A stretch of DNA of 64,000 bases from Candidatus Cloacimonadota bacterium (lineage in GTDB: Bacteria; Cloacimonadota; Cloacimonadia; JGIOTU-2). Position 1 is the stretch's first letter, and each line of letters begins with the position of its first letter. The notes beneath the pieces are model-generated. The model ran no database searches and was not told the origin of the DNA. It saw only the letters and a program-made list of their open reading frames with translations. The position numbers and the translations under genes were made by a program. This document shows, one piece after another, positions 5,768 to 49,399 of this stretch. The DNA lies in assembly GCA_030613025.1 (NCBI GenBank), contig JAUWMT010000001.1, positions 16,013-80,012 of the forward strand, read 5' to 3'.

Positions 5768-6499
5768 TTATGCTACAAATAATAATAAAAATGCAATAAC
5801 TAATGCATATATCGATGTTGACTCTGACACTGCAGCGCCAACGAACATTGTTCTTACAAGTATTGATGACTGCTTTGGAAATCTACTGATACCGTCAACG
5901 GCTTTTCCTGCCACAATACCGATACCGAATCCAGGACCGAATGTGCCGAAACCCATTGCAAAAGCAGCACCGATAAAGGCAAATGATTTCACAATACTGT
6001 TCCCATCCGGTGTTGAATAAAGAAGAAGCATCGCAATAACCAAAGCAAAGATAGCTGACGTTTCTGAAAGCGCCTGCCCGATAAGCATATTTGCAGTCAG
6101 CACCTTTGACTCACGCGGCTGTCTGCCGATACCCTGGCACGCTTGCCCTCCTGCATAACCGATACCAAGACCTGTTCCCAAACTTCCTGCTCCCATCACA
6201 AGTCCTGCGCCGAATAAAGAAGCAATTCTCTGCCAACCCGCATCAGGAACTATAGAGCCGCCAAAAAGAAGAAGCATCGCAATTACAAGTGCGAAGATAG
6301 CTCCGGTCTCTGTAATTGCCTGTGCAATGAGCATTGTTCGGAGAAGTATATCGTTAGATTTCGGTTGCTTCATCATCGCGATATTCGCATTACCTGCAAT
6401 ATAACCTTCTCCTATACCAGCGCCTATTGACGAAATACCAACTGCAAGCCCTGCGCCAAGATATGCTGCAACGTGTACTAAGCTAAAAGTATCAAACAT
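5768..6499 (-). CDS. Fused triple-hairpin ATP synthase c subunit (three tandem c-subunit repeats in one polypeptide)
   Basis: The 243-aa protein consists of three consecutive c-subunit hairpins of about 80 aa each. Each hairpin has a GxGxGxG first helix, an RQP/RFP loop, and a second helix that carries the conserved Glu: TETGAIFALV, SETSAIFALV and SESTSIYALV. Confidence 0.85.
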   Translation of the reverse strand: MFDTFSLVHVAAYLGAGLAVGISSIGAGIGEGYIAGNANIAMMKQPKSNDILLRTMLIAQAITETGAIFALVIAMLLLFGGSIVPDAGWQRIASLFGAGLVMGAGSLGTGLGIGYAGGQACQGIGRQPRESKVLTANMLIGQALSETSAIFALVIAMLLLYSTPDGNSIVKSFAFIGAAFAMGFGTFGPGFGIGIVAGKAVDGISRFPKQSSILVRTMFVGAAVSESTSIYALVIAFLLLFVA

Positions 6500-6500
6500 A

Positions 6501-7331
6501 TTATTTTATTGCCACTGCCGTATAAGACAGCACAAGCATTGTGAACACAAATGCCTGCACCGTTCCGATGAACAAACCAAAAAACAGATTAAGACCAACC
6601 GGAATGAGAATAAAACGTGTAAGATTAGACACAACAAGTATGATGATCGCACCACCAAGAATATTTCCAAAAAGACGGAAGGAGAGAGAAATGCCCTTTG
6701 CAAGTTCACCAACGATATTAATGGGAAGCATAAAAGCGATCGGCTCTGCGTATTCTTTCAGATACAGTTTGATGCCTTTTTCTTTAATTGCCGAGTAATG
6801 AACGACAATAAGCGCCATAATCCCGAGCCCAAGTGGAACATTTAAATTTCTTGTTGGTTCAAGATTTCCCGGAATGGGGATCAAACCGACAATATTACAC
6901 AACCAGATAAAAACGAAAATCGTAAAAATATAAGGAGTAAAATATTTCTTTTTCTCTCCGACAGTTTCTATCACAAGACTGGAAAAGAAAGAGTATATCA
7001 TCTCGGCAACGATCTGCAATTTCCCTGGTATCAGGTGCATTTTCCGTCTGACGAGTGCTGCAAATAATATCAGGAAAAGATCAACGAAAAGAATAACGCG
7101 CAGGACACTCCAATTTATGGTAAATTTCCTAAAAAGTTTTATCATATGATATTGCTGAAATTCGTGATTTATCTGGTCTTGAATTGATTTTTCGCTTTCA
7201 ATATTTCGAATTACAAATTTACCTTCATCAAATCCGAATTGAAGCTCATGATTAAGTCCAATAGACAGAATCCCCTCAATAATGATTATTGCGAGAATGA
7301 TAAGTAGTGCTTTCTTGGACTTTTTTTTCAT
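6501..7331 (-). CDS. atpB: ATP synthase F0 a subunit
   Basis: The motif SLSFRLFGNILGG carries the essential Arg. The protein is polytopic, 276 aa, and sits in the operon position immediately upstream of the c genes. Confidence 0.9.
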   Translation of the reverse strand: MKKKSKKALLIILAIIIIEGILSIGLNHELQFGFDEGKFVIRNIESEKSIQDQINHEFQQYHMIKLFRKFTINWSVLRVILFVDLFLILFAALVRRKMHLIPGKLQIVAEMIYSFFSSLVIETVGEKKKYFTPYIFTIFVFIWLCNIVGLIPIPGNLEPTRNLNVPLGLGIMALIVVHYSAIKEKGIKLYLKEYAEPIAFMLPINIVGELAKGISLSFRLFGNILGGAIIILVVSNLTRFILIPVGLNLFFGLFIGTVQAFVFTMLVLSYTAVAIK

Positions 7332-7349
7332 ATAATAAATTTTAGATTA

Positions 7350-7733
7350 TTAAGATTCTTGATTATTTTTTCCTGCAAGAATACCATCGACGAGAACGAT
7401 AGCCGGAGCGATCAGCAAACCTGCAAGAAGAGAAAAAATATTTACTTCCAAAAATTTCACAAAAACGACTACAAAAACAACCAATATCAAATAGCGGATA
7501 TAGAAATTTTTGAAAACACTTAATTTCGCACCCGAGGGACTTAGTCCCACTCGATTTTCTGCACCCTTTGCCTGAAAATAAAAATTCAAACTTGAAAGAA
7601 TTGAACCAAGCAAATAGCCCAACCAAAGCTTCAAGTTTTGTGTGATAAGCAAAAGGGCTGGAATCTGTGTCAAGAAAATAACCCATAGAATATGATATAC
7701 ATATTTCCGAAAACTATTTGTCTGAATTTTCAT
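7350..7733 (-). CDS. atpI: AtpI-like small membrane protein (ATP synthase protein I)
   Basis: A 127-aa protein with about four transmembrane helices, directly upstream of atpB on the same strand. Confidence 0.5.
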   Translation of the reverse strand: MKIQTNSFRKYVYHILWVIFLTQIPALLLITQNLKLWLGYLLGSILSSLNFYFQAKGAENRVGLSPSGAKLSVFKNFYIRYLILVVFVVVFVKFLEVNIFSLLAGLLIAPAIVLVDGILAGKNNQES

Positions 7734-7950
7734 TTTTTTTGATAAGCTGGTAACATGAAAAGGCGCCGGAAACTACTCCACAAAAAATGCCGATTATTAT
7801 TGGAATTCCTCCAAGATTCCACTTTTTATCTATAAACAAACCGATAAAGAAAAAAATAAGAATGTTGATCACCATTGTGAGACCGAGCTGTGCTACAAGC
7901 CCGAGCCCTTCAAAAACCTCCTTATAATACCTCTTATTCTTCAACGACAT
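7714..7950 (-). CDS. atpZ: AtpZ-like small membrane protein (the family described as putative F0F1-ATPase subunit Ca2+/Mg2+ transporter)
   Basis: A 78-aa protein with two transmembrane helices and a GLGLVAQLGLTMV...GGIPIIIGIFCG pattern. It is the first gene of the atp operon. Confidence 0.45.
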   Translation of the reverse strand: MSLKNKRYYKEVFEGLGLVAQLGLTMVINILIFFFIGLFIDKKWNLGGIPIIIGIFCGVVSGAFSCYQLIKKNENSDK

Positions 7951-7955
7951 AGAGT

Positions 7956-8327
7956 TTATTTTTCTTTAGCTTTTTTGGTGCTTTTGGCAGTTTCGACCTG
8001 TTTGACACTACAATTCCCGCTAATCTGTGTTCCCGATTCCATAGAAAGGATCTTGGCAATAATGTCACCATTAATGAGCGCTGAACTTTTCAGTTCTAAT
8101 TTTTTTTCTATTGTGATATTCCCCTCAACCTTCCCGGAAATGATCGCTTCATCTGATTGAATGTCTGCTTTTATATTTGCCTTTTCTCCGATAAGTAAAA
8201 AGCCATCGCAGATTATCTTTCCATCTACTTCGCCATCAATACGAACACCGCCCTCAGAATGAATTTCTCCATTTAACTTCGTATATTCTCCAATAATAGT
8301 ATCCAGTTTATTTTCTCCGTTTTTCAC
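7956..8327 (-). CDS. Bactofilin (polymer-forming cytoskeletal protein)
   Basis: A 123-aa protein with a repetitive beta-helix signature (G.V.I.G.V.G.I..G). A Lys-rich tail is typical of bactofilins. Confidence 0.75.
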   Translation of the reverse strand: MKNGENKLDTIIGEYTKLNGEIHSEGGVRIDGEVDGKIICDGFLLIGEKANIKADIQSDEAIISGKVEGNITIEKKLELKSSALINGDIIAKILSMESGTQISGNCSVKQVETAKSTKKAKEK

Positions 8328-8340
8328 GAAAACCTCCGTC

Positions 8341-8997
8341 TCATTTTATTTTTGATTCCGGATTGATATTTTTATTATAATATAAAATTTCAAAGTGCAG
8401 ATGCGGAGCAGAACTTATGCCTGTATTTCCTACCTCTGCTATCTGCTCTCCCTTGCGCACAAAGCTTCCCACCCTCACGTTTATGTAGGAATTGTGGCCA
8501 TACCTTGTTTTATAACCATTCAGGTGATCCAACACCAAAATCTTCCCATAAATATCATCATTAAGAACAATTGTTTCAACCACTCCAGATGCCGCAGCAT
8601 AAACCGGTTCGCCAACTTTGCCTGCAAGGTCAATGCCGTAGTGATTCCTCTTTGGTAAATAGGGTTTTGTGAGTATCAGTTCAGCAAGTGGGCAGAAATT
8701 GGGGATATATTGCTGATAATTGACAAATTCTCTCATTGCATCATCAAGCTCTTTCTCGTGCAAATCAATATTATCCAAATCTTTTGAAGGAGTTACCGGT
8801 TTTTTTGTTGCTGTGGGCATTGACGCAATAACGTCTTCGAGTTGTTTGACCTTGAGATCCAAACCCTGCTTTTCCTGCTTCAAAATATCATTCTTTGAAG
8901 AAAGGTCGTTTATAAGATATAGCGATACGCCGATATACGACGCGACAACAATGATAATAATGACTGAAAGAAAAACTACTACTCTTCTATGTTTCAT
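8341..8997 (-). CDS. M23 family metallopeptidase (LytM domain) with an N-terminal transmembrane helix and coiled coil
   Basis: An N-terminal transmembrane helix and coiled coil are followed by a C-terminal domain with HxxxD-like and HLHFEI motifs (GHNSYINV ... SAPHLHFEILY). Confidence 0.8.
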   Translation of the reverse strand: MKHRRVVVFLSVIIIIVVASYIGVSLYLINDLSSKNDILKQEKQGLDLKVKQLEDVIASMPTATKKPVTPSKDLDNIDLHEKELDDAMREFVNYQQYIPNFCPLAELILTKPYLPKRNHYGIDLAGKVGEPVYAAASGVVETIVLNDDIYGKILVLDHLNGYKTRYGHNSYINVRVGSFVRKGEQIAEVGNTGISSAPHLHFEILYYNKNINPESKIK

Positions 8998-9824
8998 TTT
9001 GTTTGAAGTATCATATTGAGGATCTTTTCAAATTCATCCTCAGAATGGTAATAGATCTCAAATTTGCCTTTTTTATAGCCCTTTATTTTCACTCTTGTTC
9101 CAAACCTCTTCTCAAGGTCGTGTTCAAGAGCGACTAAATGGATATCCCTTCTTGCAGGTTTTTTCTCTTTATTAAAATTCTCAAACCGCTTTGATAACAT
9201 TTCTGCATTGTGTACGGAAATTTCGTGTTTCGCGATATATTTTGCGAAATCTATTTGCAGAGATTGGTCGACCTGTAGAATTGCACGAGCATGTCCGGCA
9301 GAAAGGATATCTTCTTTTATCATTTCAATAATCGGTTTCGGTAATTTTAAAATTCTTAATGCATTGGTTATCGCTACTCTGCTTTTACCGACAATGTATG
9401 CAATTTTCTCATGCGTGTATTTGAATTCATCCACAAACCGCTGATACGCCATTGCTTCATCAACAGCGTTGAGGTTCTCTCTTTGTATATTCTCCACAAG
9501 TGCGAGTATGAGCATTTCCTGATCTTTTGCTGTGCGAACTATTGCAGGCACCTTTGCAAATCCGGCTATTTGAGCAGCAGTTAATCGACGCTGACCGGCT
9601 ATGAGTTCATATTTATCTTTTCCTGCTTTTCGCACAATTATCGGCTGAATTATGCCATTTTCGGTTATTGAATCTGCCAGCTCCTGCAACTGTTTCTTAT
9701 TGATGGATTTTCTCGGCTGAAAGGGATTGAAAGATATATTTTCAATTGTTATCAGCTTTACGCCGGTTTTATCATCTTCATCAATTTGAACAAGTGCTTC
9801 CAAACCTTTTCCAAGTTTACTCAT
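8994..9824 (-). CDS. parB: Chromosome partitioning protein ParB
   Basis: Contains the ParB box GQRRLTAAQIAG, the N-terminal stretch ISFNPFQPRK, and an HTH. It overlaps parA by 4 nt. Confidence 0.9.
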   Translation of the reverse strand: MSKLGKGLEALVQIDEDDKTGVKLITIENISFNPFQPRKSINKKQLQELADSITENGIIQPIIVRKAGKDKYELIAGQRRLTAAQIAGFAKVPAIVRTAKDQEMLILALVENIQRENLNAVDEAMAYQRFVDEFKYTHEKIAYIVGKSRVAITNALRILKLPKPIIEMIKEDILSAGHARAILQVDQSLQIDFAKYIAKHEISVHNAEMLSKRFENFNKEKKPARRDIHLVALEHDLEKRFGTRVKIKGYKKGKFEIYYHSEDEFEKILNMILQTK

Positions 9825-10597
9825 GCGACTTCCTTTCCATCTTTTTTTAACACTTCCAGCGCAAGACGTAGATAATTTTGTGCTCCACGCGAACTTATAT
9901 CATAGGTCAAGATCGGCTTGCCATAACTCGGTGCTTCACTCAATTTCACATTACGGTCAATTATTGTATCAAAAACTATGTTCTTAAAATACCTTCGAAC
10001 TTCCTTTGCAACCTGCTCGGCTAAGATTGTTCTTCTATCATACATGGTAATAACAATTCCAAAAATGGACAGATCGGGATTTAGTTTCCTCTTGATAAGC
10101 TGAATTGTCTTGAGCAATTGGGCGATTCCCTCGAGCGCATAATATTCTGATTGGATCGGAATAAGCAGATCGTTGCTCGCGACCATTGCGTTCACAGTCA
10201 AAATATTCAGAGACGGTGGACAATCTATAATAATGTAATCAAATTTTCCATCAATATTTGAAAGCACTCTTTTCAACCGTTGCTCTTTCTTATCTGCTGT
10301 CAGGAGCTCCACTTCACAGCCAATGAGATCTATCGAAGATGGAATGATGCGCAGGTTGGCAATGCTTGTTTCATGTATTGAATCATAAACATTAGAATCT
10401 CCAAGCAAAAGATCGTATATCTGTCCATCGACGGAATGTTTATCTATTCCGATTCCGCTTGTGCAGTTTGCCTGCGGATCGAGGTCGATAAGCAGCACTT
10501 TTTGCCCGTATGACGCAAGAGAAGCAGCAAGATTAATAGCTGTTGTGGTCTTGCCGACGCCACCTTTTTGATTCGTGATCGCGAGTGCTTTAGCCAT
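9821..10597 (-). CDS. parA: Chromosome partitioning ATPase ParA
   Basis: Carries the deviant Walker A motif KGGVGKTTTAINLAA. The protein is 258 aa. Confidence 0.9.
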   Translation of the reverse strand: MAKALAITNQKGGVGKTTTAINLAASLASYGQKVLLIDLDPQANCTSGIGIDKHSVDGQIYDLLLGDSNVYDSIHETSIANLRIIPSSIDLIGCEVELLTADKKEQRLKRVLSNIDGKFDYIIIDCPPSLNILTVNAMVASNDLLIPIQSEYYALEGIAQLLKTIQLIKRKLNPDLSIFGIVITMYDRRTILAEQVAKEVRRYFKNIVFDTIIDRNVKLSEAPSYGKPILTYDISSRGAQNYLRLALEVLKKDGKEVA

Positions 10598-11231
10598 GTT
10601 TCTTTACTATTATTAAAGCTCTTTTGCCGAGCCCTGAATACTCTTTTCTGATTATTTCTGTTTTCTCACAATCCTTATACTGGTTAATCTTGTCAACTTC
10701 ATCATTATTAACCTTTGATTTATATAATATGAGTTTCCCCGAAGGTTTTAGAAGCTCAAATGCCTTCATGAAATATTCATCATTCATTTTCACTGCACGC
10801 ACAACAATGTAATCAAAACTACTGTGAAGAGTGCTGTTCAAGTCTTCAAATCGCGAGTGGATTATAGTCGTTCTTGACAGGTTAAGCTCCTGTTTTATCA
10901 ATCTAAGAAATAATACTTTCTTTCTGATTGATTCTATGCAGAATAATCCCATTGAAGGAAAAATTATTTTGAGAGGGATACCCGGGAATCCACCACCGCT
11001 TCCAAAATCCAGAACTCGAGAATTGCTAAAATCGAGAAAATCAGTAATAAGAATTGAATCAAGAAAATGTGTGAGCCAGATATTTTCAAGAGATCTTTCT
11101 GAAACCAGATTTATTTTTTTGTTTTTTTCTCGTAGGATTTTTTCATACAAAACAAACAAGTTGTAAGCACCGTCTGGAATGCTGTGCTGTTTCAGAAAGT
11201 CATAAAACTGTTTTGATTTATTTTGCATCAA
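10590..11231 (-). CDS. rsmG: 16S rRNA m7G527 methyltransferase RsmG (GidB)
   Basis: The SAM-binding motif LDFGSGGGFPGIPL is present. The protein is 213 aa and sits between mnmG and parA. Confidence 0.85.
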   Translation of the reverse strand: MMQNKSKQFYDFLKQHSIPDGAYNLFVLYEKILREKNKKINLVSERSLENIWLTHFLDSILITDFLDFSNSRVLDFGSGGGFPGIPLKIIFPSMGLFCIESIRKKVLFLRLIKQELNLSRTTIIHSRFEDLNSTLHSSFDYIVVRAVKMNDEYFMKAFELLKPSGKLILYKSKVNNDEVDKINQYKDCEKTEIIRKEYSGLGKRALIIVKKHG

Positions 11232-13047
11232 GAGTCTTTAGTTTTATAAGAAGTGCAGACACATCGGCAAAAGTTACCCCTGGTATTCGTGCTGCCTGTC
11301 CCACAGAAAGTGGCTTGACTTTTGTGAGCTTTTCTCTTGCTTCATAGGAAATAGTTTCAAATTCCATATAGTTAAAATCTGCTGGAATTGATTTATTCTC
11401 CAGATAATTAAATCGTTCTATTTCCTGCTTCTGGCGTTTAATATAACCCTCGTATTTTACTTCGAGAGATATCTTATCCTTGATCAGATCAGTAACATCA
11501 TTTCCAATTTTGTATCCAAACTTAGTCAGATCATCATAAGCAATTTCCGGTCTTCGAAGAATATCTATCATTTTGTATGCTTTGTCCGAATCTGTTTTTG
11601 CATTGGTCTTTTGAAGTTTTATTATTTCTCTATTTTTAATATTTAATGCTTCAGTAAATTTATTATATCTTTCATCGGCAATTAAACCTAAATCGTGTCC
11701 CAAAGGCATTAGGCGTTCATCTGCATTATCCTGCCGCAGGTGAAGGCGATACTCCGCACGTGCCGTGAACATTCGATAGGGTTCATCTACTCCTTTTGTG
11801 ACGAGGTCATCTATCAGCACTCCAATATAGGAATTATCTCTATGCATAACGATCGGTTCTTTTTTCATCACATAATTCACAGCATTGATACCTGCGATTA
11901 TACCCTGTGCTGCAGCTTCTTCGTAACCGGAAGTGCCGTTTATCTGACCTGCAAAAAAAAGCCCTTTTATCAACCTTGTTTCCAGACTATATTGAATATA
12001 TTCAGTTGGAATACTGTCATACTCGATCGCATATCCATAACGCATTAATTTCGCATTTTCAAGACCTTCAACAGAATGGATCATATCCAGCTGAACTTGC
12101 GGAGGAAAGCTTGTAGGCAGCCCGTTAGCGTACATTTCAAAGGTATTAAGTCCTTCGGGTTCTATAAACACTTGATGCCTATCCTTCTCCGGAAATTTCT
12201 TTATTTTATCTTCGATCGAAGGACAATACCTCGCACCAATTCCTGTGATATTTCCGCTGAACAAAGATGATTTTGTAATATTATCTGCAATGATTTTGTG
12301 GGTTCGTTTATTTGTATAAGTGAGAAAGCAACTCACATAATTTTTGGGTTCAATGTCAGTATAATATGAAAATTTTGGTGGTGGTTCATCGGGTTTTTGT
12401 TCTTCCAGTTTTACATAATCAAGTGAGCGAGAATCAAGGCGCGCAGGAGTTCCTGTTTTGAATCTTACCAATGGAAAACCGTGAGCTTTCAAAGAATCTG
12501 AAAGTTTTAAAGAAGCAAATTCACCTGCTCTTCCGGCAGAATATTTATTCTTGCCGATATGTATCGTTCCATTAAGAAATGTACCCGCAGCAATAATGAC
12601 AGTTTTGCCAAAATAAGTCTGTCCATACTGTGTCTTAACGCCTTTTATCTGCCCTTTTTGAACCAGAAGTTCTTCGACAAGGGCTTCTTTTATTTCAAGA
12701 TTTTCCTGATGCTCTACGACAGAACGCATTTCCAACTGATATTTCATTCTATCTGCTTGTGCACGAGGTGCCCATACAGCGGGACCTTTGCTCTTATTGA
12801 GCATCCTAAAATGTATTCCCGTTCTATCTATGACCTGTCCAATTGCGCCACCAAGTGCATCAACTTCACGTGTAAGATGCCCTTTTGCCAGACCTCCCAC
12901 TGCCGGATTGCAAGACATGCGCCCTATCGTTTCAAGCTTGATCATGAACATGAGCGTATCAGCACCAATTTTTGCTGCAGCCAGTGCAGCTTCACATCCT
13001 GCATGACCTGCGCCGACAACGATAACGTCATAGATTTTGGAGTGCAT
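11218..13047 (-). CDS. mnmG: tRNA uridine-5-carboxymethylaminomethyl synthesis enzyme MnmG (GidA)
   Basis: Has the FAD-binding N-terminus YDVIVVGAGHAGCEAALAAA. The protein is 609 aa, with conserved GidA blocks throughout. Confidence 0.93.
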   Translation of the reverse strand: MHSKIYDVIVVGAGHAGCEAALAAAKIGADTLMFMIKLETIGRMSCNPAVGGLAKGHLTREVDALGGAIGQVIDRTGIHFRMLNKSKGPAVWAPRAQADRMKYQLEMRSVVEHQENLEIKEALVEELLVQKGQIKGVKTQYGQTYFGKTVIIAAGTFLNGTIHIGKNKYSAGRAGEFASLKLSDSLKAHGFPLVRFKTGTPARLDSRSLDYVKLEEQKPDEPPPKFSYYTDIEPKNYVSCFLTYTNKRTHKIIADNITKSSLFSGNITGIGARYCPSIEDKIKKFPEKDRHQVFIEPEGLNTFEMYANGLPTSFPPQVQLDMIHSVEGLENAKLMRYGYAIEYDSIPTEYIQYSLETRLIKGLFFAGQINGTSGYEEAAAQGIIAGINAVNYVMKKEPIVMHRDNSYIGVLIDDLVTKGVDEPYRMFTARAEYRLHLRQDNADERLMPLGHDLGLIADERYNKFTEALNIKNREIIKLQKTNAKTDSDKAYKMIDILRRPEIAYDDLTKFGYKIGNDVTDLIKDKISLEVKYEGYIKRQKQEIERFNYLENKSIPADFNYMEFETISYEAREKLTKVKPLSVGQAARIPGVTFADVSALLIKLKTLDAK

Positions 13048-13226: not shown

Positions 13227-14438
13227 ATGCTCAAAAGAATAGACACAGCTCAATCGGACGCACTTCTCAAGATTATACGGACAATTAATTCCCATCTTAA
13301 TCTTGATAAAGTGTTGGAATCTGTCATGGACGTGACCACACAGGCAATGCATGTTGAAGCATCTTCGTTAGTTCTGATCGATGAGGAAACGAACGATCTT
13401 CTATTCCATGTGACAGAAGGCGAAAAAGCAAAGATCATCAAAAAAATACGGATGAAAGCAGGTGAAGGTATTGTCGGATGGGTTATAAAAGAAGAAAAAG
13501 CGGTGCTCGTTAATGACGTGTCTAAAGACAAGCGCTTCTATAAAGCTGCTGATAAGAAAAGTGGCTTTATAACAAAATCAATACTCTGCGTTCCTATGTG
13601 CACTGCCGATAAATGCCTTGGAGCGATCGAGGTTATCAATAAGATGGATGGCAAAGATTTTGATGATGCAGATAGAATTTTTCTTGAAGCGATCTCTTCA
13701 CAGGCAGCCATTGCCATAGAAAATGCGAAACTCCACGATCGCATTGTAAAAAATGAACGGCTTGCCGCCATCGGGCAAACAGTCTCAGGACTTGCACATT
13801 GTATAAAAAACATACTAAACGGAGTCCAGGGCGGGTCTTATATTCTTGATCTTGGACTAAAGAAGGAAAATTTATCAAATGTTGGTAAGGGCTGGGGTAT
13901 CGTAAAAAAGAATAATGAATTCATCAAGGAACTCGTGCTTGACATGCTATCATATTCCAAAGAGCGAGAACCCGAATATGGAACTGTTGATGTGAACGAA
14001 CTTGTTAAAAGCGTCTGCGAACTTATGGAGCAAAAAGGTAAAGAAAAAAATGTTTCAATGCAATTTTTGCCGGAAGAATCTCTCAATGAAGTTGAGATCG
14101 ATGCTAAGGGAGTGAAACGTTGTGTTCTGAATCTCATTTCCAATGCCATCGATGCGTGTGAAGAAGTGGATAAATGCAATGTCGAGGTCTCAGTACAAAA
14201 TACAAGAGGTAAGATCTTCCGAATTCACGTTGCCGATTCCGGGGTTGGTATGTCGCCGGAAACGCAGACAAAACTATTCCAGGTTTTTTTCAGCACAAAG
14301 GGCTCAAAAGGCACAGGGCTTGGGCTTGCAGTTTCCTATAAGATCATAAAAGAGCATGGGGGAAATATTTCTGTTGACTCAGAAAAGGGGAAAGGTACAA
14401 AATTTACTATTACATTGCCAAAGAAAAGGAAAAAATAA
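13227..14438 (+). CDS. Cytoplasmic sensor histidine kinase containing a GAF domain
   Basis: An N-terminal GAF domain is followed by the H-box region LAAIGQTVSGLAHCIKN and a HATPase_c domain with the G-box GVGMSPE and GTGLGLAVS. No transmembrane helix is present. Confidence 0.85.
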   Translation: MLKRIDTAQSDALLKIIRTINSHLNLDKVLESVMDVTTQAMHVEASSLVLIDEETNDLLFHVTEGEKAKIIKKIRMKAGEGIVGWVIKEEKAVLVNDVSKDKRFYKAADKKSGFITKSILCVPMCTADKCLGAIEVINKMDGKDFDDADRIFLEAISSQAAIAIENAKLHDRIVKNERLAAIGQTVSGLAHCIKNILNGVQGGSYILDLGLKKENLSNVGKGWGIVKKNNEFIKELVLDMLSYSKEREPEYGTVDVNELVKSVCELMEQKGKEKNVSMQFLPEESLNEVEIDAKGVKRCVLNLISNAIDACEEVDKCNVEVSVQNTRGKIFRIHVADSGVGMSPETQTKLFQVFFSTKGSKGTGLGLAVSYKIIKEHGGNISVDSEKGKGTKFTITLPKKRKK

Positions 14439-14457: not shown

Positions 14458-14856
14458 ATGGCAGATAATAAAAAGATACTTATAATTGATGACGAGCCGG
14501 ACGCAATTGCATTTTCAGAAGCAATGCTTTCTGAGCTTGGAGAATTTGAAATCGAGACTGCTATTAATGGTCTCGAAGGATTGCAGAAAGCCGAAGCGGT
14601 CAAGCCCGACCTGATCATTTTAGATGTGCAGATGCCTGTCATGAATGGTTTTCAAGTTTTTAAGGAACTTAAAAAAAATGATGTAACTGACACTATTCCC
14701 GTTATCATGCTTACCGGCATGGCAGCGACTACCGGACTTCGATATGATGCAAAAGACATGGGCATAACCCTTGGCTCCGAGCCCGAAGCTTATATCGATA
14801 AACCAGTTGAGCCAGAAGAGTTTCATAAAACCGTGAGCTCTATTCTCGGATTGTAA
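14458..14856 (+). CDS. Stand-alone response-regulator receiver (CheY-like)
   Basis: A 132-aa protein with the acidic pocket IIDDEPD, the phospho-acceptor aspartate in LIILDVQMP, and the motif YIDKP. Confidence 0.85.
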   Translation: MADNKKILIIDDEPDAIAFSEAMLSELGEFEIETAINGLEGLQKAEAVKPDLIILDVQMPVMNGFQVFKELKKNDVTDTIPVIMLTGMAATTGLRYDAKDMGITLGSEPEAYIDKPVEPEEFHKTVSSILGL

Positions 14857-14920: not shown

Positions 14921-17023
14921 ATGAAAAAGAAAAAACGAGGACTACAAAAGCAAATTTTAGCTCTCTATTTTTTGTTCACCTTTTCCCTTGTATTCATTCT
15001 GATCTTCAGCGTCTGGCAGCTTACCAAACTCGGTATTTCAGAATTTGAATATGAGAGAATTTCCCGCACGCTTACAAATCTAAAAACACTTCAGCTCGAT
15101 TATACAAACATGCTGAATAATTTTACCTCTGAAATCGCAACTACCCCTGATCTTATTACTTCAGCAGAAAATCAAGATGCTGTATCTATTCAATCAATAC
15201 TTAATTCCTATGATGATCATCCTCTCGCTAGCTACATGGCTCTCTTTGATGCAAATGGCACTATGCTTTATGGTGAATATTGGGAGCTTGTTGAATCTTT
15301 TCTGCCGGAAATGCTCTCTTTAGCAAAACAGAATACAACACAAGGTTTTTCTGCAAATTTTTCTAATAAGATATTCTATTTTGCCTACGCTCCGCTTTAT
15401 TCTGAAAACGATCAAGAGAAAACATTTTTAGGACTTTTTCTCAACGTAAGCCAGATCACTCCTTCTGAAATTGGAGCAGCTCGGGATCCTCAAATTTTTC
15501 TTTTGCCTTTTTCAGTGCCTCTCAATCCGGAGCAGGAGATCCTCAAGAAAATCATTCCCGAACTCGATAAAAAACTTCCCGCTGTATTAAAAACTAAAAA
15601 CCGTGAATCTGTTTTACGCTTAAATGCAGAAACTGCTGTTGGTCTTCTTATTAATTATAACATATTCGATGAGCCCGCTTCACTCACAGTGTATATTTAC
15701 GATCGAGAATTCAATAAATTCTCTCGCCAAAGCTTGCTCTTCTTTTTCCTTATTCTCCTAGCATCTACACTTGTTATCGTGAGTTTCCTTAGCAACTGGT
15801 TCAGTAGAAAAATAATGCGGCCAATAAAACAGATAAGTGAAAAAATGCAGAGGATTGAGAAAAACCCACTTGGTATTGAATATATTGAGGATGAATATGG
15901 CGGTGAGCTGAGCAATATGGTTTCTGCATTCAGCTCTATGAACAAAGCTCTTGTTGAATATCATAAATCTCTTCTGGAGTACAAAGTCCTTACTGATAAT
16001 ATTGATATTGGTGTACTGTGGATGGACTCAAAAATGAATATCCTTATTTGCAATCCAAGTGCAATGGACATTCTTGAACTCATATCCAATGATGAGATCA
16101 TCGGCAAGAATCTATCCGAATTTATCCGGTTAGATGAGGGTCTATTATCGATGGCTCATGAAGACAGCTTGACTCTTCCTCGACTCGAAATTAACTTTCC
16201 GGGGAAAAAGAAGTTCGTAAAATTCGTTATCCTGAATATTAAAGCTGTTGATGACACTATCGGCTTACGCATGGTTGCAACCATAACCGACATAACACAT
16301 GAAATAAATGAAAAAAGAGCCCGTGAAGCGCTTGAGATGGAAATCATAAAGAGTAACAAATTAGCTGAAATCGGAAGAAGGGTCGAGGGTGTGGTGCACA
16401 ATATGAACTCACCACTTAATTCAATTCTTGGGTATGCCCAGCTTGTAAAAAAAGAATATAAATACAATGACGATGTTGATAAGATAATTGATGCTGCAAA
16501 AAATATTTCACAATCCGTAAAAACTCTGTTACGAAAAGTGCAGCAGGACAATATTTCTATGATGCGCCCCATTGACATCAATCAGCTTATCGGGCAGGAA
16601 CTCGAGCTGTTGGAGCACAATCTTTTCTTTAAGCATTATGTTTTGTTAGAAAAAAATCTTTTTAAAGAACTCCCAACTGTGAAAGCGGTATATAGCGACA
16701 TTAGCCAGAGTTTTACTAACCTTGTAAATAATGCCATCGAGGCGATGCATGACAGCAAAGAACGAAATATCTGGGTACGTACATATCAAACTTCGGACTT
16801 TATCGCAATAGAAGTGCGCGATAGTGGAGAAGGTATTGAAGAGAAATATCAATCTAAGATATTTGAACCTTATTTTACATCGAAAAAGGGAAAAGAACAG
16901 GGCGGCTTTGGCCTTGGTCTTGCGATCTGTAAGAACATTGTCGAGCGTTATGGTGGTTATATTACCGTGCGCTCAGAACCGGATAAAGGAAGTACTTTTA
17001 CAATATTTCTTCCCTATGAATAA
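14921..17023 (+). CDS. Membrane sensor histidine kinase with a large extracytoplasmic domain and a PAS domain
   Basis: Two transmembrane helices flank a periplasmic domain of about 250 aa. This is followed by a PAS domain, the H-box VHNMNSPLNSILGYAQL, and a HATPase_c domain with the N and G boxes. Confidence 0.85.
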   Translation: MKKKKRGLQKQILALYFLFTFSLVFILIFSVWQLTKLGISEFEYERISRTLTNLKTLQLDYTNMLNNFTSEIATTPDLITSAENQDAVSIQSILNSYDDHPLASYMALFDANGTMLYGEYWELVESFLPEMLSLAKQNTTQGFSANFSNKIFYFAYAPLYSENDQEKTFLGLFLNVSQITPSEIGAARDPQIFLLPFSVPLNPEQEILKKIIPELDKKLPAVLKTKNRESVLRLNAETAVGLLINYNIFDEPASLTVYIYDREFNKFSRQSLLFFFLILLASTLVIVSFLSNWFSRKIMRPIKQISEKMQRIEKNPLGIEYIEDEYGGELSNMVSAFSSMNKALVEYHKSLLEYKVLTDNIDIGVLWMDSKMNILICNPSAMDILELISNDEIIGKNLSEFIRLDEGLLSMAHEDSLTLPRLEINFPGKKKFVKFVILNIKAVDDTIGLRMVATITDITHEINEKRAREALEMEIIKSNKLAEIGRRVEGVVHNMNSPLNSILGYAQLVKKEYKYNDDVDKIIDAAKNISQSVKTLLRKVQQDNISMMRPIDINQLIGQELELLEHNLFFKHYVLLEKNLFKELPTVKAVYSDISQSFTNLVNNAIEAMHDSKERNIWVRTYQTSDFIAIEVRDSGEGIEEKYQSKIFEPYFTSKKGKEQGGFGLGLAICKNIVERYGGYITVRSEPDKGSTFTIFLPYE

Positions 17024-17038: not shown

Positions 17039-18463
17039 ATGAAAAATGATGAGATCCAGACAGAATTCTTCAAACAAAATGCCAAAATCCTCATAGTAGA
17101 TGACGAACAGGATACATTGGATATTTTCCGCCGTCACCTCGAAGATGAATATCATATCGACACAGCTCATTCTGCTGAAGAAGCACTTGAAAAGTTAGAG
17201 AACAACACCTATCATATTGCAATGACGGATATGGTTATGCCGGGAACAGACGGTATCGAGCTTCTGACACAGATAAAGAAACGCTTGCCCCATGTTGCCG
17301 TTGTTATGATAAGCGGAAAAGCTACCATCGGAATGGCTGTTGAAGCTATGAAAATCGGCGCTGAAGAATTTATAGAAAAACCGGTTGAAGATCTCGATCT
17401 GCTGAAGATCATCATAAAAAAAATCCTCAAAACCAAGTGGCAGCATGAGGAAATTAAGCGCCTTAGAAGTATTCTAGCTCAGGAATTTGACCGCACCCAG
17501 ATTATTGGCAACAGTCTTGCAATTCAAAAAGTCATGGAAAAAGTGAAGCGCATCGCCCATCTTGACACGACTATTCTTGTTACCGGTGAAACGGGAGTGG
17601 GCAAAGATCTTTTTGCCGATCTTATCTATCTTAATAGTAAAAGAAAAGCGCAAAAATTTGTAACAGTTAACTGTGGCGGATTACCAGAAAATCTTCTTGA
17701 AAGTATGCTTTTTGGTCATAAAAAGGGCTCGTTCACTGACGCTATAAGAGATAAAGTCGGCTATTTCCAGGAAGCAGACGGGGGTACGCTTTTCCTTGAT
17801 GAAATAACAGAAACCAACAAGACTTTTCAGGTAAAACTTCTGCGCGTTCTTGAGAAAGGTGTGGTCAGACCGGTCGGTGCTGATATGGATATTGAAGTTA
17901 ATGTGCGCATTATCACCTCAACAAATAAGGACATTGAAAAGGAAGTAAAAGATGGCAATTTCCGTCAGGATCTTTACTACCGCCTTAATGTCATTCATCT
18001 TCACATCCCACCTCTTCGCGAAAGAAGAGAGGATATTCCGCTTCTTACCAATGCATTTTTACGAGAGTTTAGAAAGAAATATGACAAATCAAACCTTGAA
18101 ATCTCTGATACTGTTATGTCCGTCCTTATCTCCCGGGAATGGGAAGGAAATATTCGTGAACTGAAAAATACAATCGAGCATGCGGTTGCAATGGCAACTC
18201 ATAATAAAATTGTGCTGGAAGATCTTCCGGGCAATATATATATGAAGCTTGGAGCTGTTGAGAATAAATTAAACAACCTGGTGAACTTATCTTTTTCTGA
18301 AGCGAAGGATACTTTTGAAAAGAATTATGTTGAAGAAATTCTGATAAAATGTAATGGTGATGTGACAAAAGCATCAGAACTTTCCGGTATTAAGCGTCCA
18401 AATCTCTACGAAAAATTTAACAAGCACAATATTGACGTGAACAAGTATAGAAATAATTCGTAA
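17039..18463 (+). CDS. Sigma-54-dependent response regulator (NtrC/PilR-type bacterial enhancer-binding protein)
   Basis: An N-terminal receiver domain (LIVDDEQD, with Asp in AMTDMVMPG) is followed by an AAA+ sigma-54 interaction domain with the Walker A motif GETGVGKD, the GAFTGA-like motif GHKKGSFTDA, and ESELFGHEKG-like residues. A C-terminal HTH is present. Confidence 0.9.
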   Translation: MKNDEIQTEFFKQNAKILIVDDEQDTLDIFRRHLEDEYHIDTAHSAEEALEKLENNTYHIAMTDMVMPGTDGIELLTQIKKRLPHVAVVMISGKATIGMAVEAMKIGAEEFIEKPVEDLDLLKIIIKKILKTKWQHEEIKRLRSILAQEFDRTQIIGNSLAIQKVMEKVKRIAHLDTTILVTGETGVGKDLFADLIYLNSKRKAQKFVTVNCGGLPENLLESMLFGHKKGSFTDAIRDKVGYFQEADGGTLFLDEITETNKTFQVKLLRVLEKGVVRPVGADMDIEVNVRIITSTNKDIEKEVKDGNFRQDLYYRLNVIHLHIPPLRERREDIPLLTNAFLREFRKKYDKSNLEISDTVMSVLISREWEGNIRELKNTIEHAVAMATHNKIVLEDLPGNIYMKLGAVENKLNNLVNLSFSEAKDTFEKNYVEEILIKCNGDVTKASELSGIKRPNLYEKFNKHNIDVNKYRNNS

Positions 18464-18550
18464 TCTCTTTTCCTCATGATAAAAAAGTACATCGGATACC
18501 AATAGAGCAAATGCCTGCATCCGTTCGAATAAAGCGTAACTGCGTTATGT

Positions 18551-18600
18551 TTTTATTACACCCTGTGGGTTTGTGTTATTTTTTTATTACACTCCGTGTT
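18551..18600 (+). promoter_or_regulatory. Tandem direct repeat (TTTTTATTACAC-YC-YGTG, two copies about 32 bp apart). This is a candidate upstream activator (enhancer) site for the adjacent enhancer-binding protein.
   Basis: The first copy TTTTATTACACCCTGTG lies at about 18551-18568 and the second copy TTTTTATTACACTCCGTG at about 18583-18600. They sit roughly 100-150 bp upstream of a -24/-12-like element. Confidence 0.4.
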
Positions 18601-18701
18601 GATTTCTCTAAATCCCTTATTCGTTAAATAATATAAAAATAAGCACAAAAATAGCGATAATTCTGATCATTACGAATATTTAAACAAATCATTTCAGTCT
18701 T

Positions 18702-18717
18702 TGGCACGATATTTGTA
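18702..18717 (+). promoter_or_regulatory. Candidate sigma-54 (-24/-12) promoter for the pilin-like gene
   Basis: The element reads TGGCAC-gatat-TTGT. It matches TGGCAC-N5-TTGC at the -24 GG and the correct spacing, but the -12 GC is replaced by GT. It lies about 70 nt upstream of the ATG at 18789. Confidence 0.4.
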
Positions 18718-18788
18718 TGTTAAATTGTAAATAGTTTCATAGACGTGAAATTCTTGTCTAGCGAAAATAATAAAACAAGGAGGTTCCC

Positions 18789-19190
18789 ATGGGAACTCAA
18801 CAAATTCTGCTCATTGTTTTGAGCGTAATTATCGTAGGTATCGCTGTGGCTGTTGGTATTACAATGTTTAATGCCCAGTCAGTGAATTCAAACCGCAATG
18901 CATGTATTGCTGACATGAACAACTTCGCTGCCAGTGCTCTTGCATTTTACAAAACCCCCACAAGTCATGGTGGTGCAGGTTCAACAATAGGAAATGTTGT
19001 GGATTCTACAGTTTGCAACTATATTGGTGTAGGTTATACTGCCCCTAATCAACTCAGTACTGATAATGGTACATACACTATTACATTGGCTGGCACCGTC
19101 CTTACTTTTACAGCTGCTGGAACTGAATCAGGTGTAACCCCTGTAACTACTGTTGATTTTAGTTCTAGTGCCATTGCAACTACACCATAA
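18789..19190 (+). CDS. Small pilin-like protein with an N-terminal hydrophobic helix. It is a putative major subunit of the downstream type IV filament system and has no canonical prepilin leader.
   Basis: The 133-aa protein starts MGTQQILLIVLSVIIVGIAVAVGITMF and continues into a Gly/Thr-rich, probably beta-stranded, C-terminus that contains 2 Cys. A strong ribosome-binding site AGGAGG precedes it. It is followed by an intrinsic terminator and sits directly upstream of pilC- and pilB-like genes. Confidence 0.5.
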   Translation: MGTQQILLIVLSVIIVGIAVAVGITMFNAQSVNSNRNACIADMNNFAASALAFYKTPTSHGGAGSTIGNVVDSTVCNYIGVGYTAPNQLSTDNGTYTITLAGTVLTFTAAGTESGVTPVTTVDFSSSAIATTP

Positions 19191-19224
19191 TAATTGCGTA
19201 CTACCTAAGTAATTTAAAAGGCAA

Positions 19225-19254
19225 ATATGGGAGGTTCGCACCTCCCATATTTTT
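19225..19254 (+). terminator. Rho-independent terminator
   Basis: A perfect 11-bp stem ATATGGGAGGT / ACCTCCCATAT with a 4-nt loop is followed by TTTTT. Confidence 0.8.
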
Positions 19255-19414
19255 CACCTTTTTTTCACCTAAAAGTCCACTGAACAAATATGAACCGGTG
19301 ATAAGTCAATTGTGAAATGACGTAAATTGTTTGAAACCTCATCCTAACCTTCTCCCAGTGAGGAGAAGGCAATATAAGGAATGTCAAAATTCAATTATCA
19401 CTTCCAATCTAAGC

Positions 19415-19446
19415 TTGACTTGACATTAGTATAGTTTTCATAGAAT
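19415..19446 (+). promoter_or_regulatory. Possible sigma-70-type promoter for the pilC-like gene
   Basis: An overlapping TTGACT/TTGACA lies at 19415-19425 and a TAGAAT at 19441-19446. The spacer is 15 nt, which is suboptimal. Confidence 0.25.
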
Positions 19447-19493
19447 AGATTAAGGAATTTTTGATAATCAATATTATTAGAAGTAAATAAAAA

Positions 19494-20846
19494 ATGCTCA
19501 AAGAATTTCGCTATACCGGAAACAATTCAGCCGGTAAACCCGTGCAAGGCGTTGTTCTTGCCAGTAACAAATCAAGCGCAAAAAAACTAATCCACGACAT
19601 AGAAAGCAAAGAAAGTATTTCTGTTAATAAAATTGATCAAAAGATTAATTTCAGATATAAAATAAAGCTGCCAAGCGGCAAAAAGGTAAAGGGAAAGCAA
19701 GCGGCTTTTTCCAAGCAGGAACTTTCACGGGCACTCTCCAATTTCGGATATGCCAATGCAAAGATCGAACCGGTCCTTTTTGATTTTCAATCGAAACCCT
19801 CATTTGCAAATATCCTGATGTTTGTGAACCTCAGTTCGTTTCTGCTTAAAGAAAAAATGACTTATGATAAGATCCTTCGTATGCTTGCAGATGAAGAGAC
19901 AAATCCAACGCTGAAAGCCACATTAAAGAAGATCGAAAGCGAACTCAAGAAAGGGAAGGAAGGAACAGAAGTTTTCAACCGATATGCAGATGTGTTCGGC
20001 AAGTTTCCTGCTTATATGCTTGGTCTTGCTACTAAAAGTGGAAATATGGCAGAAGTGTATGATGCTACATCCAAGTTTATGGAAAGGGATATGGAGTATA
20101 AGAAAAGTCTGCGTCAGGCACTGATGACGCCCATGTTCACAGTTATTGCGATGATAGCAGCAGTACTATACTATATTATTTCAATCTTCCCCAGCACTGC
20201 AGAACTTTTTATTAAATCCGGAATTGAGGTGCCCCCGCTGACTGCTGCAACCTTGCGGCTGAGTGATTTTTTTGGCGCTAACTGGTGGTGGATGGCGTTG
20301 ATGATCATAATACCAATTATTATTGTATTACTATGGTGGCGCACACCTGATGGGCGGGTTTGGCGTGATAGGATGATCATCAAACTGCCGATCATAGGAA
20401 AGCTTCTTCATAAATCAAGTATTGAAATTTTCTGCCGTGTTTTTGCGGCTATTTATTCCGGCTCCGAAAATAATATCGAGACTATCCAAGCTGCTGCAGA
20501 GGCATGCAGAAATGCACACATGGAAAAAAATATCAAAGAAATAACTATTCCCCTGATGTTGAAAGAAGGTATGTCCCTCGTGCCTGCGCTTGCTGCAGCA
20601 AAGGTGTTTAATCAGACAACTTTAAGCAGATTTAAAGCAGGTTCTGAAACCGGTAATGTACTCACTTCAGCTCAGCAAATCGCAAAATTTTATGAAAAAG
20701 AAACAACTTATAAAATGCAGAATTTAATTGCATCTATCCAAACACTCATTGGGGCATTTATAGGTATTGTCATAACTGCATTAACCATTGTTTCTGCGGA
20801 AGTCGCAACGGTTTCACCCAAAACACCCGGTATGCATGGTATCTAA
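19494..20846 (+). CDS. pilC: Type IV pilus / T2SS platform protein (PilC/GspF family)
   Basis: The N-terminal region FRYTGNNSAGKPVQGVVLASN is typical of PilC. Two T2SSF repeats are present, one around LLKEKMTYDKILRML and one around IFCRVFAAIYSGSENNIETI. There are three transmembrane helices and the protein is 450 aa. Confidence 0.8.
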   Translation: MLKEFRYTGNNSAGKPVQGVVLASNKSSAKKLIHDIESKESISVNKIDQKINFRYKIKLPSGKKVKGKQAAFSKQELSRALSNFGYANAKIEPVLFDFQSKPSFANILMFVNLSSFLLKEKMTYDKILRMLADEETNPTLKATLKKIESELKKGKEGTEVFNRYADVFGKFPAYMLGLATKSGNMAEVYDATSKFMERDMEYKKSLRQALMTPMFTVIAMIAAVLYYIISIFPSTAELFIKSGIEVPPLTAATLRLSDFFGANWWWMALMIIIPIIIVLLWWRTPDGRVWRDRMIIKLPIIGKLLHKSSIEIFCRVFAAIYSGSENNIETIQAAAEACRNAHMEKNIKEITIPLMLKEGMSLVPALAAAKVFNQTTLSRFKAGSETGNVLTSAQQIAKFYEKETTYKMQNLIASIQTLIGAFIGIVITALTIVSAEVATVSPKTPGMHGI

Positions 20847-26514: not shown

Positions 26515-27414
26515 ATGGAGCAAATTAGATTATTAGATTCGGAAAAATTGATGTTTTTCTGGTGGTTAAAAATTCGCTGGTTTATTGTGCTCATACTTTT
26601 TGCGATCGGCTTACTTCGCATTGGCATGGTTAGCCAAACTATTCCTGTAGTCGTTTTTGTTGGTGCATTCCTCGGTATAAGCGTTCTCAATATTCTTTTT
26701 CATCTTCAGATCATTACTTCCAATAATATTATCGGAGCTACTCAGATCGTGCTAGATATTATTTTTGGAACCATAGTTGTTCATCTTACTGGTGGACTTG
26801 ACAGCTCGTTCGTTTGGATTTACCTCGTTGCGGTTGTCACTGCGAGTTTATCGATCGAAAAAGCAGGTGGTTTTATTGCGGCTATGATCGGAGGTATGAG
26901 CTTGCTGGTGCTAATTTTAATGTATAACTTCGGCTGGCTTTTGCCCGTTAATGGTAATGTATATAATTCAGATGTTGCGATCCAGACGATCTTTCTTATA
27001 TCCTACACGGGATTGTTCACTGTAATTGCTTTCATCTCAAGCTATACCAGCAATATAGTTAGAAAGCTTTCACTTAAAGTGCTGGAAGCGAATGACAAGC
27101 TCAAGAACCAGGAAGATTATTTACTGGATAAGGAAAAAAAGATGGTTATCGATGAAAAGCAAATCAAGGATTATAAAGAAGTCGTGCAAGTTTCGTCAAA
27201 TCTTGCTGGAATCGACCATGATATCAATAATCCTCTAAGCATCATCTCGCTTTCTTTAAGCAGAGTAAAAAGAGCGGCAAGCGAATATAATGATGAAAAG
27301 CTTCACAAATCCAGCAATCAAATTACAGAAGCGATAAATAAGATCAATGGTATCCTCGTACGGCTGCAAGATTTGAAGCGGCTACCTCTGATCAAGCAGG
27401 CAAGAAAAAAATAA
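26515..27414 (+). CDS. Polytopic membrane protein with a C-terminal HisKA (dimerisation/phosphoacceptor) domain and no ATPase domain
   Basis: About 5-6 transmembrane helices are followed by a coiled coil and the H-box NLAGIDHDINNPLSIISLSLSRV. The ORF ends about 60 aa later, so no HATPase_c domain is present. Confidence 0.6.
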   Translation: MEQIRLLDSEKLMFFWWLKIRWFIVLILFAIGLLRIGMVSQTIPVVVFVGAFLGISVLNILFHLQIITSNNIIGATQIVLDIIFGTIVVHLTGGLDSSFVWIYLVAVVTASLSIEKAGGFIAAMIGGMSLLVLILMYNFGWLLPVNGNVYNSDVAIQTIFLISYTGLFTVIAFISSYTSNIVRKLSLKVLEANDKLKNQEDYLLDKEKKMVIDEKQIKDYKEVVQVSSNLAGIDHDINNPLSIISLSLSRVKRAASEYNDEKLHKSSNQITEAINKINGILVRLQDLKRLPLIKQARKK

Positions 27415-27432: not shown

Positions 27433-28284
27433 ATGCAAAAACACATTTTAATCATCGATGACGAGGAAAGCATCAGAGAGCTGTGTAAAGAATTTTTGGA
27501 AGAAGACGGCTATAAGGTCACTCTTGCTGTTGACGGTCAAGATGGTCTTGATAAAATGAACTATGATGACTTTGATCTCTACATGATTGATATGGTCATG
27601 CCCCGCCTGGATGGGCTGGAAACCATGAAGCGTATCAAGAAGAAGCAACCCCTTGCCGTGATCATCATCACTACAGGATTTTCCAGTATCGAAGGTGCGG
27701 TAAAAGCAGTTCATGCTGGTGCGTTTCAGTATCTTTCCAAACCCATCAATGCAGAAGAACTTCTCGAAGCAGTAAAAAAGGGGGTGCAATATGGAGAAGA
27801 TCTATACGGTCCTCTTCAAAAAGCCTTTGAACCCGGAACTGAAGGCACAAAAAATGAGCCGGCTATGCTGCATGGATTCACCAAAGAAGAGAAGGTTGAT
27901 TTTTTGGCAATTGGAAGGGCACGCAAATTTGAAGCCGGTCAAACTATTGCTCTTGATAACGAAAACTCTGATTCAATCGTGCTTGTAGAATCCGGTGAAG
28001 TATCCATCTGGCTAAGTAATAACACCGTTGACTATCTCCGAAAGAATGATTCCTGGGCAGAAGAAAACTTCATACTGGCAAATTCCGAATTCACTACTCT
28101 TCGATCCGAAACAGCATGTATGATACGTTTTTTCGAAAGAAAGAAGCTTCTTGACTTCTTCGCCTACAAGGGCGAGCGTCTGATGAAACGGTTCATGATC
28201 AACCTCATTAATTGTCTCTTTTCAAAATGGAGAAAATCCATTCAACGTATTGTCATGCTCAAGCTCGTAACCGGAGAAAAATAA
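27433..28284 (+). CDS. Response-regulator receiver domain fused to a cyclic-nucleotide-binding-like (cNMP/Crp-type) domain
   Basis: The receiver domain has ILIIDDEES, the acceptor aspartate in LYMIDMVMP, and YLSKPI. The C-terminal ~120 aa (FLAIGRARKFEAGQTIALDNENSDSIVLVESGEVSIW...) resemble a cNMP-binding beta-barrel. Confidence 0.6.
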   Translation: MQKHILIIDDEESIRELCKEFLEEDGYKVTLAVDGQDGLDKMNYDDFDLYMIDMVMPRLDGLETMKRIKKKQPLAVIIITTGFSSIEGAVKAVHAGAFQYLSKPINAEELLEAVKKGVQYGEDLYGPLQKAFEPGTEGTKNEPAMLHGFTKEEKVDFLAIGRARKFEAGQTIALDNENSDSIVLVESGEVSIWLSNNTVDYLRKNDSWAEENFILANSEFTTLRSETACMIRFFERKKLLDFFAYKGERLMKRFMINLINCLFSKWRKSIQRIVMLKLVTGEK

Positions 28285-49395: not shown

Positions 49396-49399
49396 TATT

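Follow-up and report, generated by a model that had tools for sequence, protein, structure and literature searches.

The 325-bp intergenic region between the gene of an NtrC-family response regulator and a pilin-like gene in an uncultured Cloacimonadota bacterium very probably constitutes a complete enhancer-dependent sigma-54 promoter for this major pilin-like gene of a type IV pilus cluster. The region lies in a low-G+C chromosome segment of 64,000 nt, referred to below as the window. An initial annotation had proposed the geometry of an enhancer plus a -24/-12 promoter for the pilin-like gene, and this proposal is borne out, as the promoter, a pair of sites 31 bp apart, and the synteny of the activator and pilin genes are all conserved across the phylum. 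The arrangement is ordinary in kind, being a new example of the known PilR/pilA-like and NtrC/glnAp2-like control with no new mechanism, and the definition of the enhancer is refined. The pilus locus of Cloacimonadota gains in this way a concrete and testable regulatory annotation, consisting of a promoter, two activator sites, a consensus dyad, and the 31-bp geometry.

The statistics within the window are weak, and it is the comparative data that set these elements apart from chance. We gathered 15 genome loci via the activator and 80 metagenome loci via the pilin (487 kb in total). Pilin genes were located as open reading frames (ORFs) starting with MG[TM]QQ, and 95 distinct regions of 400 bp upstream of them were taken, while the enhancer statistics refer to 54 non-redundant promoters with 350 nt upstream of each. 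Additionally, nine loci were combined in an alignment (A3), in which conserved islands, namely dyad 1, dyad 2, TTTGGCAC...TTG, a motif in the 5' untranslated region (UTR), and the ribosome-binding site, are separated by divergent AT-rich DNA.

The -24/-12 promoter of the pilin-like gene

The sigma-54 promoter TGGCACGATATTTGT (TGGCAC-GATAT-TTGT, a GG-N10-GT arrangement) occupies positions 18702-18716 of the forward strand, with the correct spacing and a single mismatch, C to T, at -12. It is the sole TGGCAC-N5-TTGY in the window and is separated by 103 nt from the second copy of an 18-bp direct repeat described below and by 72 nt from the ATG at 18789, in agreement with the annotated near-consensus element about 100 bp past the repeats and about 70 nt before the pilin-like start codon. 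The start of transcription is predicted at around 18726-18730, near 18728. The scan for promoters and terminators revealed no sigma-70-like promoter on the forward strand of the intergenic region.

The comparison of the 95 upstream regions showed TGGCAC-N5-TTGC with no more than one mismatch on the coding strand of 66 of them (34 perfect and 32 with one mismatch), in comparison to 2/95 in the reverse-strand control. These sites are located mostly 56-151 nt before the pilin ATG, and the regions without a -24/-12 site belong mostly to second or later copies of tandem pilin arrays. TTTGGCAC and the TTG of the element are invariant in the A3 alignment. Judged from these sequence comparisons, the -24/-12 element is real and conserved across the phylum. 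The -12 variant TTGT, present in the window, was also found in L029, L031, L034, and L040, and TTGA in L002, L019-21, and L066, while the closest relative, L001, has TTGC. The mismatch at -12 is a variant that recurs within the clade.

The search for further copies of the repeat and of the -24/-12 element that accompanied the original proposal was carried out in the window; the repeat occurs there in two copies, and the other TGGCAC-N5-TTGC sites with up to one mismatch all fall within ORFs and were judged to be chance matches.

Paired dyads as the probable enhancer unit

The enhancer had been annotated as a tandem 18-bp repeat, TTTTTATTACACYCYGTG, and two exact copies are indeed present on the forward strand at 18550-18567 and 18581-18598, with exactly two matches in the window. 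The first copy starts one position earlier than annotated (18550, not 18551), and the start-to-start distance is 31 bp instead of 32 bp. The repeat extends ungapped in the 5' direction to 27 nt (18541-18567 and 18572-18598, 85% identity), and among 100 shuffles of the window, 3 contained two or more matches to the 18-mer when up to three mismatches were allowed. The concept of tandem sites spaced by about three helical turns holds, but the conserved unit proved to be an 18-20 bp dyad shifted by 7 nt in the 5' direction. Only the 5' 11 nt of each 18-mer lie inside the conserved dyads, so that the 18-mer corresponds to the right half of a dyad with its non-conserved flank.

The first predicted upstream activating site, CGTTAT-GTTTTT-ATTACA (CGTTATGTTTTTATTACA), is located at 18543-18560 on the forward strand and differs at three positions from the consensus TGTCAT-N6-ATGACA. 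Its first base lies 159 nt 5' of the T of TGGCAC, and its centre is at approximately -176 from the predicted transcription start. The second predicted site, TGTTAT-TTTTTT-ATTACA (TGTTATTTTTTTATTACA), with two mismatches to the consensus, is located on the same strand at 18574-18591, that is exactly 31 bp (three helical turns) from the first one. The start of this second site lies 128 nt 5' of the same T and its centre at about -145, and the site widens to a 20-bp near-palindrome, GTGTTAT-N6-ATTACAC, at 18573-18592. Both sites form islands in A3. The spacer between the dyads and the promoter (18599-18701), presumed to be the looping segment, is AT-rich (24% G+C) and shows low conservation in the same alignment.

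The same motif emerged from an unbiased analysis of 6-mer enrichment upstream of the promoters, in which ATGACA/TGTCAT was found in 28 of the 54 regions versus 11 expected. TGTCAT-N6-ATGACA with up to two mismatches occurs 42 times in these regions versus 1.4 expected, and the more generic TGTC-N10-GACA with up to one mismatch also occurs 42 times, in 32 of the 54 regions, versus 4.3 expected. Pairs of dyads 30-33 bp apart are present in 24 of the 54 regions, 18 of them at exactly 31 bp, while over 200 shuffles the mean number was 0.05 and the highest 1. The offsets of 159 and 128 nt before TGGCAC are common to the window, L001, L002, L031, L034, and L040. The count matrix built from 48 sites reads TGT[C/A/T]AT, a T-rich N6, AT[G/T]ACA, and then often C. 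All dyads are oriented alike, and since the T-rich spacer makes them directional, they look like a direct repeat. In a distant clade, represented mostly by digester-type samples, a variant dyad, TGTCCC-N6-GGGACA, is found at a fixed position of -171 to -175. A preferred helical phase between the proximal dyad and the promoter is only suggested, with Rayleigh p values of 0.002-0.04 depending on the period, obtained from loci that are not phylogenetically independent.

These data bear on what exactly is recognised. The view that the unit is the 18-bp direct repeat itself, TTTTTATTACAC[C/T]C[T/C]GTG, including a small CAC-N3-GTG palindrome, draws on the exact match of both window copies. However, L001, with an activator of 97% identity, has the same dyads as the window, while the 3' tails CCCTGTG and CTCCGTG of the 18-mers read CCTCGTT and GCAAGG there; the tails are not kept in L002 either. 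The (C/T)GTTAT extension on the 5' side, which the 18-mer omits, is conserved in L001, CAC-N3-GTG is absent near the dyads in other loci, and the conserved columns over the 48 sites are TGTnAT-N6-ATnACA(C). Conservation in relatives, named in the initial annotation as a test of the repeat, is hence found for the dyad pair but not for the CAC-N3-GTG tail, which is lost even in the closest relative. Recognition of the 18-mer is accordingly highly improbable, and the functional unit is most likely, as far as sequence comparison can tell, the dyad (G)TGTnAT-N6-ATnACA(C) at 18543-18560 and 18574-18591.

The location of the dyads in other genomes is equally informative. Each of the 40 dyad pairs in the 487 kb has an activator gene on one side and a pilin gene on the other, or lies in the corresponding position where the contig ends. 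In L003, L006, L007, and L014, two paralogous membrane-protein genes (531 and 768 aa, with about 38% mutual identity; 5439-9342 in L006) follow the activator gene, and in L029, L031, L034, L037, L040, L042, and L066 the dyad pair comes after the end of the 768-aa gene and is itself followed by the promoter and then the pilin gene. In the loci with the inserted genes, the dyad pair is found about 158 and 127 nt upstream of the pilin promoter and about 4 kb from the activator gene. The dyads keep with the pilin promoter despite the gene insertion, which indicates that the enhancer is tied to the promoter and not to the end of the activator gene. The possibility that the repeats have no regulatory role, having arisen by chance within the T-rich intergenic DNA or belonging to the 3' side of the activator gene, for instance as a terminator, could appeal to the modest statistics within the window and to the AT-rich sequence. 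Nevertheless, conservation, the 31-bp spacing, and the promoter distance hold across lineages with non-alignable flanks, the dyad pair tracks the pilin promoter when genes are inserted, and no terminator-like hairpin is present on the forward strand at the repeats, all of which makes such an explanation barely credible.

Several additional features were observed in individual loci. In the clade of L004, L005, L008, and L010, whose dyads lie 220-330 nt upstream, the extra DNA includes two further conserved elements: CCTTCTCTCCAGAGAAGG, a perfect hairpin located about 110-170 nt 5' of the promoter, and TTGACAG with an A-rich block after it, just 5' of the -24 element. L008 encodes at least six tandem pilin paralogues (6153-9425), with a sigma-54 promoter and a dyad pair at the first only.

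The activator, the proposed mechanism and its counterparts

The gene directly upstream of the intergenic region (17039-18463, forward strand) encodes an NtrC-family sigma-54 enhancer-binding response regulator with the Pfam domains Response_reg, Sigma54_activat (E 8e-66), AAA_lid_14, and HTH_8, in accordance with the annotated activator. It contains GSFTDA, a variant of the GAFTGA loop. Among solved structures, Aquifex NtrC4 and NtrC1 are its nearest full-length homologues (PDB 4l4u, 3dzd, and 1ny5; E 1.8e-87). Orthologues with 55-97% identity were found in 13 Cloacimonadota genomes (metagenome-assembled), and the order of the activator gene followed by the pilin gene was seen in about 30 loci.

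The activator gene is preceded by a regulatory cassette, all on the forward strand. A GAF-domain histidine kinase (13227-14438; Pfam GAF and HATPase_c) is a candidate sensor of this cassette and is followed by a stand-alone receiver (REC) protein (14458-14856; Pfam Response_reg). A REC-like tblastn match was detected at the equivalent relative position 5' of the activator gene in L001, L005, L006, and L007. Directly 5' of the activator gene lies the gene of a membrane HAMP/PAS histidine kinase (14921-17023; Pfam HAMP, PAS_9, HisKA, and HATPase_c), which does not contain the 6TM_PilS domain and is likely the cognate kinase of the activator.

In the proposed mechanism, sigma-54 RNA polymerase would be held in a closed complex on TGGCAC-N5-TTGT (18702-18716), while dimers of the activator would bind the two like-oriented dyads via their Fis-type helix-turn-helix (HTH) domains, and the distance of 31 bp would place them on the same face of the DNA. 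Phosphorylation of the receiver, presumably by the adjacent histidine kinase or kinases, would lead to the formation of an active ring by the AAA+ domains. The AT-rich spacer of about 100 bp would then loop, and ATP hydrolysis would open the promoter, with transcription starting near 18728. The expected product is a monocistronic pilin mRNA ending at the terminator at 19229-19254.

The sigma-54 promoter could be real with the dyads serving another dimeric regulator, Crp/Fnr-like or a different HTH co-activator or repressor, while the activator binds elsewhere or acts from solution. The TGT...ACA arms resemble many dimeric HTH operators, among them the Crp operator, TGTGA-N6-TCACA, and a protein combining REC with a cyclic-nucleotide-binding (cNMP) domain is encoded in the pilus cluster (27433-28284). 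On the other hand, two same-face sites 100-150 bp 5' of a -24/-12 promoter represent the classical geometry of enhancer-binding proteins, and dyad pairs occur only in the position between the activator and pilin genes. The REC/cNMP protein has only about 39 residues past its cNMP domain, an HTH was not detected in it, and the TGT-N12-ACA arms are spaced 2 bp wider than in the Crp site. We consider such a regulator unlikely and favour binding of the dyads by the activator.

Several observations weigh against the sigma-54 enhancer interpretation as a whole. At least one TGGCAC-N5-TTGY was present in 19 of 100 shuffles of the window, so that chance within the window is not negligible, and the -12 element has T where the consensus has C. 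The rpoN gene was found neither in the window nor in any fetched locus, including a search for the RpoN-box motif in six-frame translations of the 487 kb, and no paper on sigma-54 in Cloacimonadota was found in the literature. The dyads of the window are degenerate (two to three mismatches), and at that stringency the consensus is not enriched window-wide (7 occurrences versus 3.8 expected). In some relatives the dyads are found 220-740 nt from the promoter (-220 to -330 in some clades). The link between the dyads and the activator is one of position and synteny only, and the HTH recognition helix and the half-site covary weakly: ATTACA is preferred in the RPN/KFNK clade and ATGACA in the RQN/KFKK clades, which amounts to a single phylogenetic event. 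Finally, the consensus for the integration host factor (WATCAANNNNTTR) is absent from the 125 nt 5' of the window promoter, and no conserved site was present in the first 30 of the 54 non-redundant loci. As to sigma-54 itself, its presence in the genome is suggested by the intact Sigma54_activat activators.

In its geometry the arrangement resembles E. coli glnAp2, where two NtrC dyads, each bound by a Fis-type HTH dimer, are spaced by about 32 bp (three turns) and located approximately 100-140 bp 5' of a -24/-12 promoter, acting as a platform for the assembly of the AAA+ ring. This layout of dyads and promoter is shared, but the NtrC half-sites are TGCACC-N5-GGTGCA, the sites described here are located somewhat further upstream (centres at about -145 and -176), and the target gene is different. 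The outer TGT...ACA arms upstream of a sigma-54 promoter are also reminiscent of the NifA upstream activating sequence, TGT-N10-ACA, although the arm spacing here is N12 and the activator has a receiver domain and not a GAF domain. Aquifex aeolicus NtrC4 and NtrC1 share the REC/AAA+/HTH architecture of the activator, but they have other targets and no orthology is implied.

The PilS-PilR/pilA systems of Pseudomonas aeruginosa, Geobacter sulfurreducens, Xanthomonas, and Myxococcus likewise combine an NtrC-type response regulator with an RpoN-dependent promoter of the major pilin gene, a control that would apply here by analogy. In Geobacter, pilR is located directly upstream of the RpoN-dependent pilA (PMC2725144), and the gene of the enhancer-binding response regulator similarly adjoins the major pilin gene in the window. 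The pilA gene of Xanthomonas is controlled by PilRX and RpoN2 (PMC8657755). The PilR sites described in Pseudomonas consist of NifA-like TGT-N11-AGA and GTCT elements (PMC6058289), which are close to the TGT-N12-ACA and TGTC-N10-GACA found here. In contrast to these systems, the kinases adjacent to the activator gene are of the GAF and HAMP/PAS types and not PilS with six transmembrane helices, so that no kinase uniting this membrane domain with HisKA and HATPase lies beside the activator gene. Moreover, the activator passes no NCBIfam equivalog cut-off; its best matches (AtoC, PEP-CTERM regulator, GlrR, NtrX, and NtrC) are all far under the cut-offs, with no PilR model among those listed. The pilin also differs in having no canonical leader/Gly-1/Glu+5 motif, and the phylum is the uncultured Cloacimonadota. 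While the activator is probably PilR-like in function, it and the kinases are not established as members of the PilS-PilR family proper. The occurrence of genes for type IV pili in Cloacimonadota was noted earlier (bioRxiv 10.1101/2021.10.08.463351), and nothing was found in the literature on their regulation. The present data would extend the PilR/sigma-54/pilin paradigm outside Proteobacteria, and the dyad motif may be used to predict the regulon of the activator in complete genomes.

The pilin-like gene, its leader and the surrounding genes

The pilin-like gene (18789-19190, forward strand) encodes a protein of 133 aa with the N-terminus MGTQQILLIVLS, starting with the ATG at 18789 and preceded by a Shine-Dalgarno sequence, AAGGAGG, which was read from the sequence (18777-18783, forward strand) and is invariant in A3. 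The protein has a type IV pilin fold, with a long N-terminal hydrophobic helix packed on a beta-sheet, and all its homologues carrying an organism name come from Cloacimonadota. A class III signal peptide would comprise a basic leader, Gly-1, N-methylated Phe/Met+1, and Glu+5; the N-terminus here reads MGTQQIL..., and a stop codon in the same frame precedes it by 6 codons. The leader has at most two residues, and there is no Glu5. No match to the Pfam domain N_methyl was obtained for this protein, and no Peptidase_A24 is encoded in the window.

Downstream of the gene, an intrinsic terminator (GGGAGGT-TCGC-ACCTCCC followed by a T-run) is located at 19229-19254 on the forward strand. The RNA fold of 19215-19262 has an energy of -21.8 kcal/mol (z -6.8), and 0 of 200 shuffles were as stable. 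The scan of the intergenic region for promoters and terminators had missed this post-pilin terminator, which was confirmed by the separate folding. About 240 nt of non-coding DNA separates it from the PilC-like gene; the terminator and this gap together indicate that the pilin gene is transcribed alone.

The 5' UTR contains the motif TAGACGTGAA (18740-18749, forward strand), invariant in A3 and present as TAGAnGTGAA in most Cloacimonadota pilin leaders. Among L001-L095, TAGAnGTGAA is found 21-59 nt from TGGCAC, and 139 nt from it in L010; the variable distance indicates that the motif is not tied to the promoter. The Rfam scan of 18400-19500 gave sub-threshold chance matches only and none for the UTR motif, and the structure of the 5' UTR was not convincing (RNAalifold -2 kcal/mol, one covarying pair). 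In L010 (5970-6215), the UTR motif is separated from the sigma-54 promoter by an insertion of around 100 nt, which has inverted GGGGGTGAAAT and ATTTCACCCCC at its flanks and may represent a small element inserted into the leader.

A more speculative reading of these features, to which we assign a rather low probability, is that the locus produces a non-canonical type IV filament, built of a near-leaderless subunit with the pilin fold, an invariant MG-TQQ start, and no Glu5, in a cluster that has no prepilin peptidase, and that TAGAnGTGAA provides a second, post-transcriptional layer of control. If both were true, Cloacimonadota would have a distinct scheme of pilin maturation and regulation under dedicated sigma-54 control; a post-transcriptional layer of this kind has not been described for pilin genes. 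Members of this phylum are abundant in anaerobic digesters and anoxic waters.

The pilin-like ORF is followed by genes of a T2SSF/PilC protein and a T2SSE/PilB ATPase, and further 3' the pilus cluster encodes small membrane-anchored proteins, a DUF7305 protein, a protein with 6TM_PilS and HisKA, the REC/cNMP-binding protein, a PilT-like ATPase, a TPR protein, and a secretin. The protein with the PilS-like six-transmembrane domain (26515-27414, 299 aa) lies 8 kb downstream, inside the pilus cluster; it carries HisKA, with HATPase not detected, and the REC/cNMP protein is encoded next after it. The two may form a second, pilin-sensing signalling module.

The wider neighbourhood looks like an origin-proximal region, and the segments 357-13047 and 42180-52616 contain an F-type ATP synthase operon and genes of bactofilin and an M23 peptidase, as well as parB, parA, gidB, gidA, mnmE, dxs, a tldD/pmbA pair, and yidC. 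Directly 3' of the pilus secretin gene (34412-40545), large surface proteins are encoded, with LVIVD repeats and beta-helix, CarboxypepD_reg, and Por_Secre_tail (type IX secretion sorting) domains.
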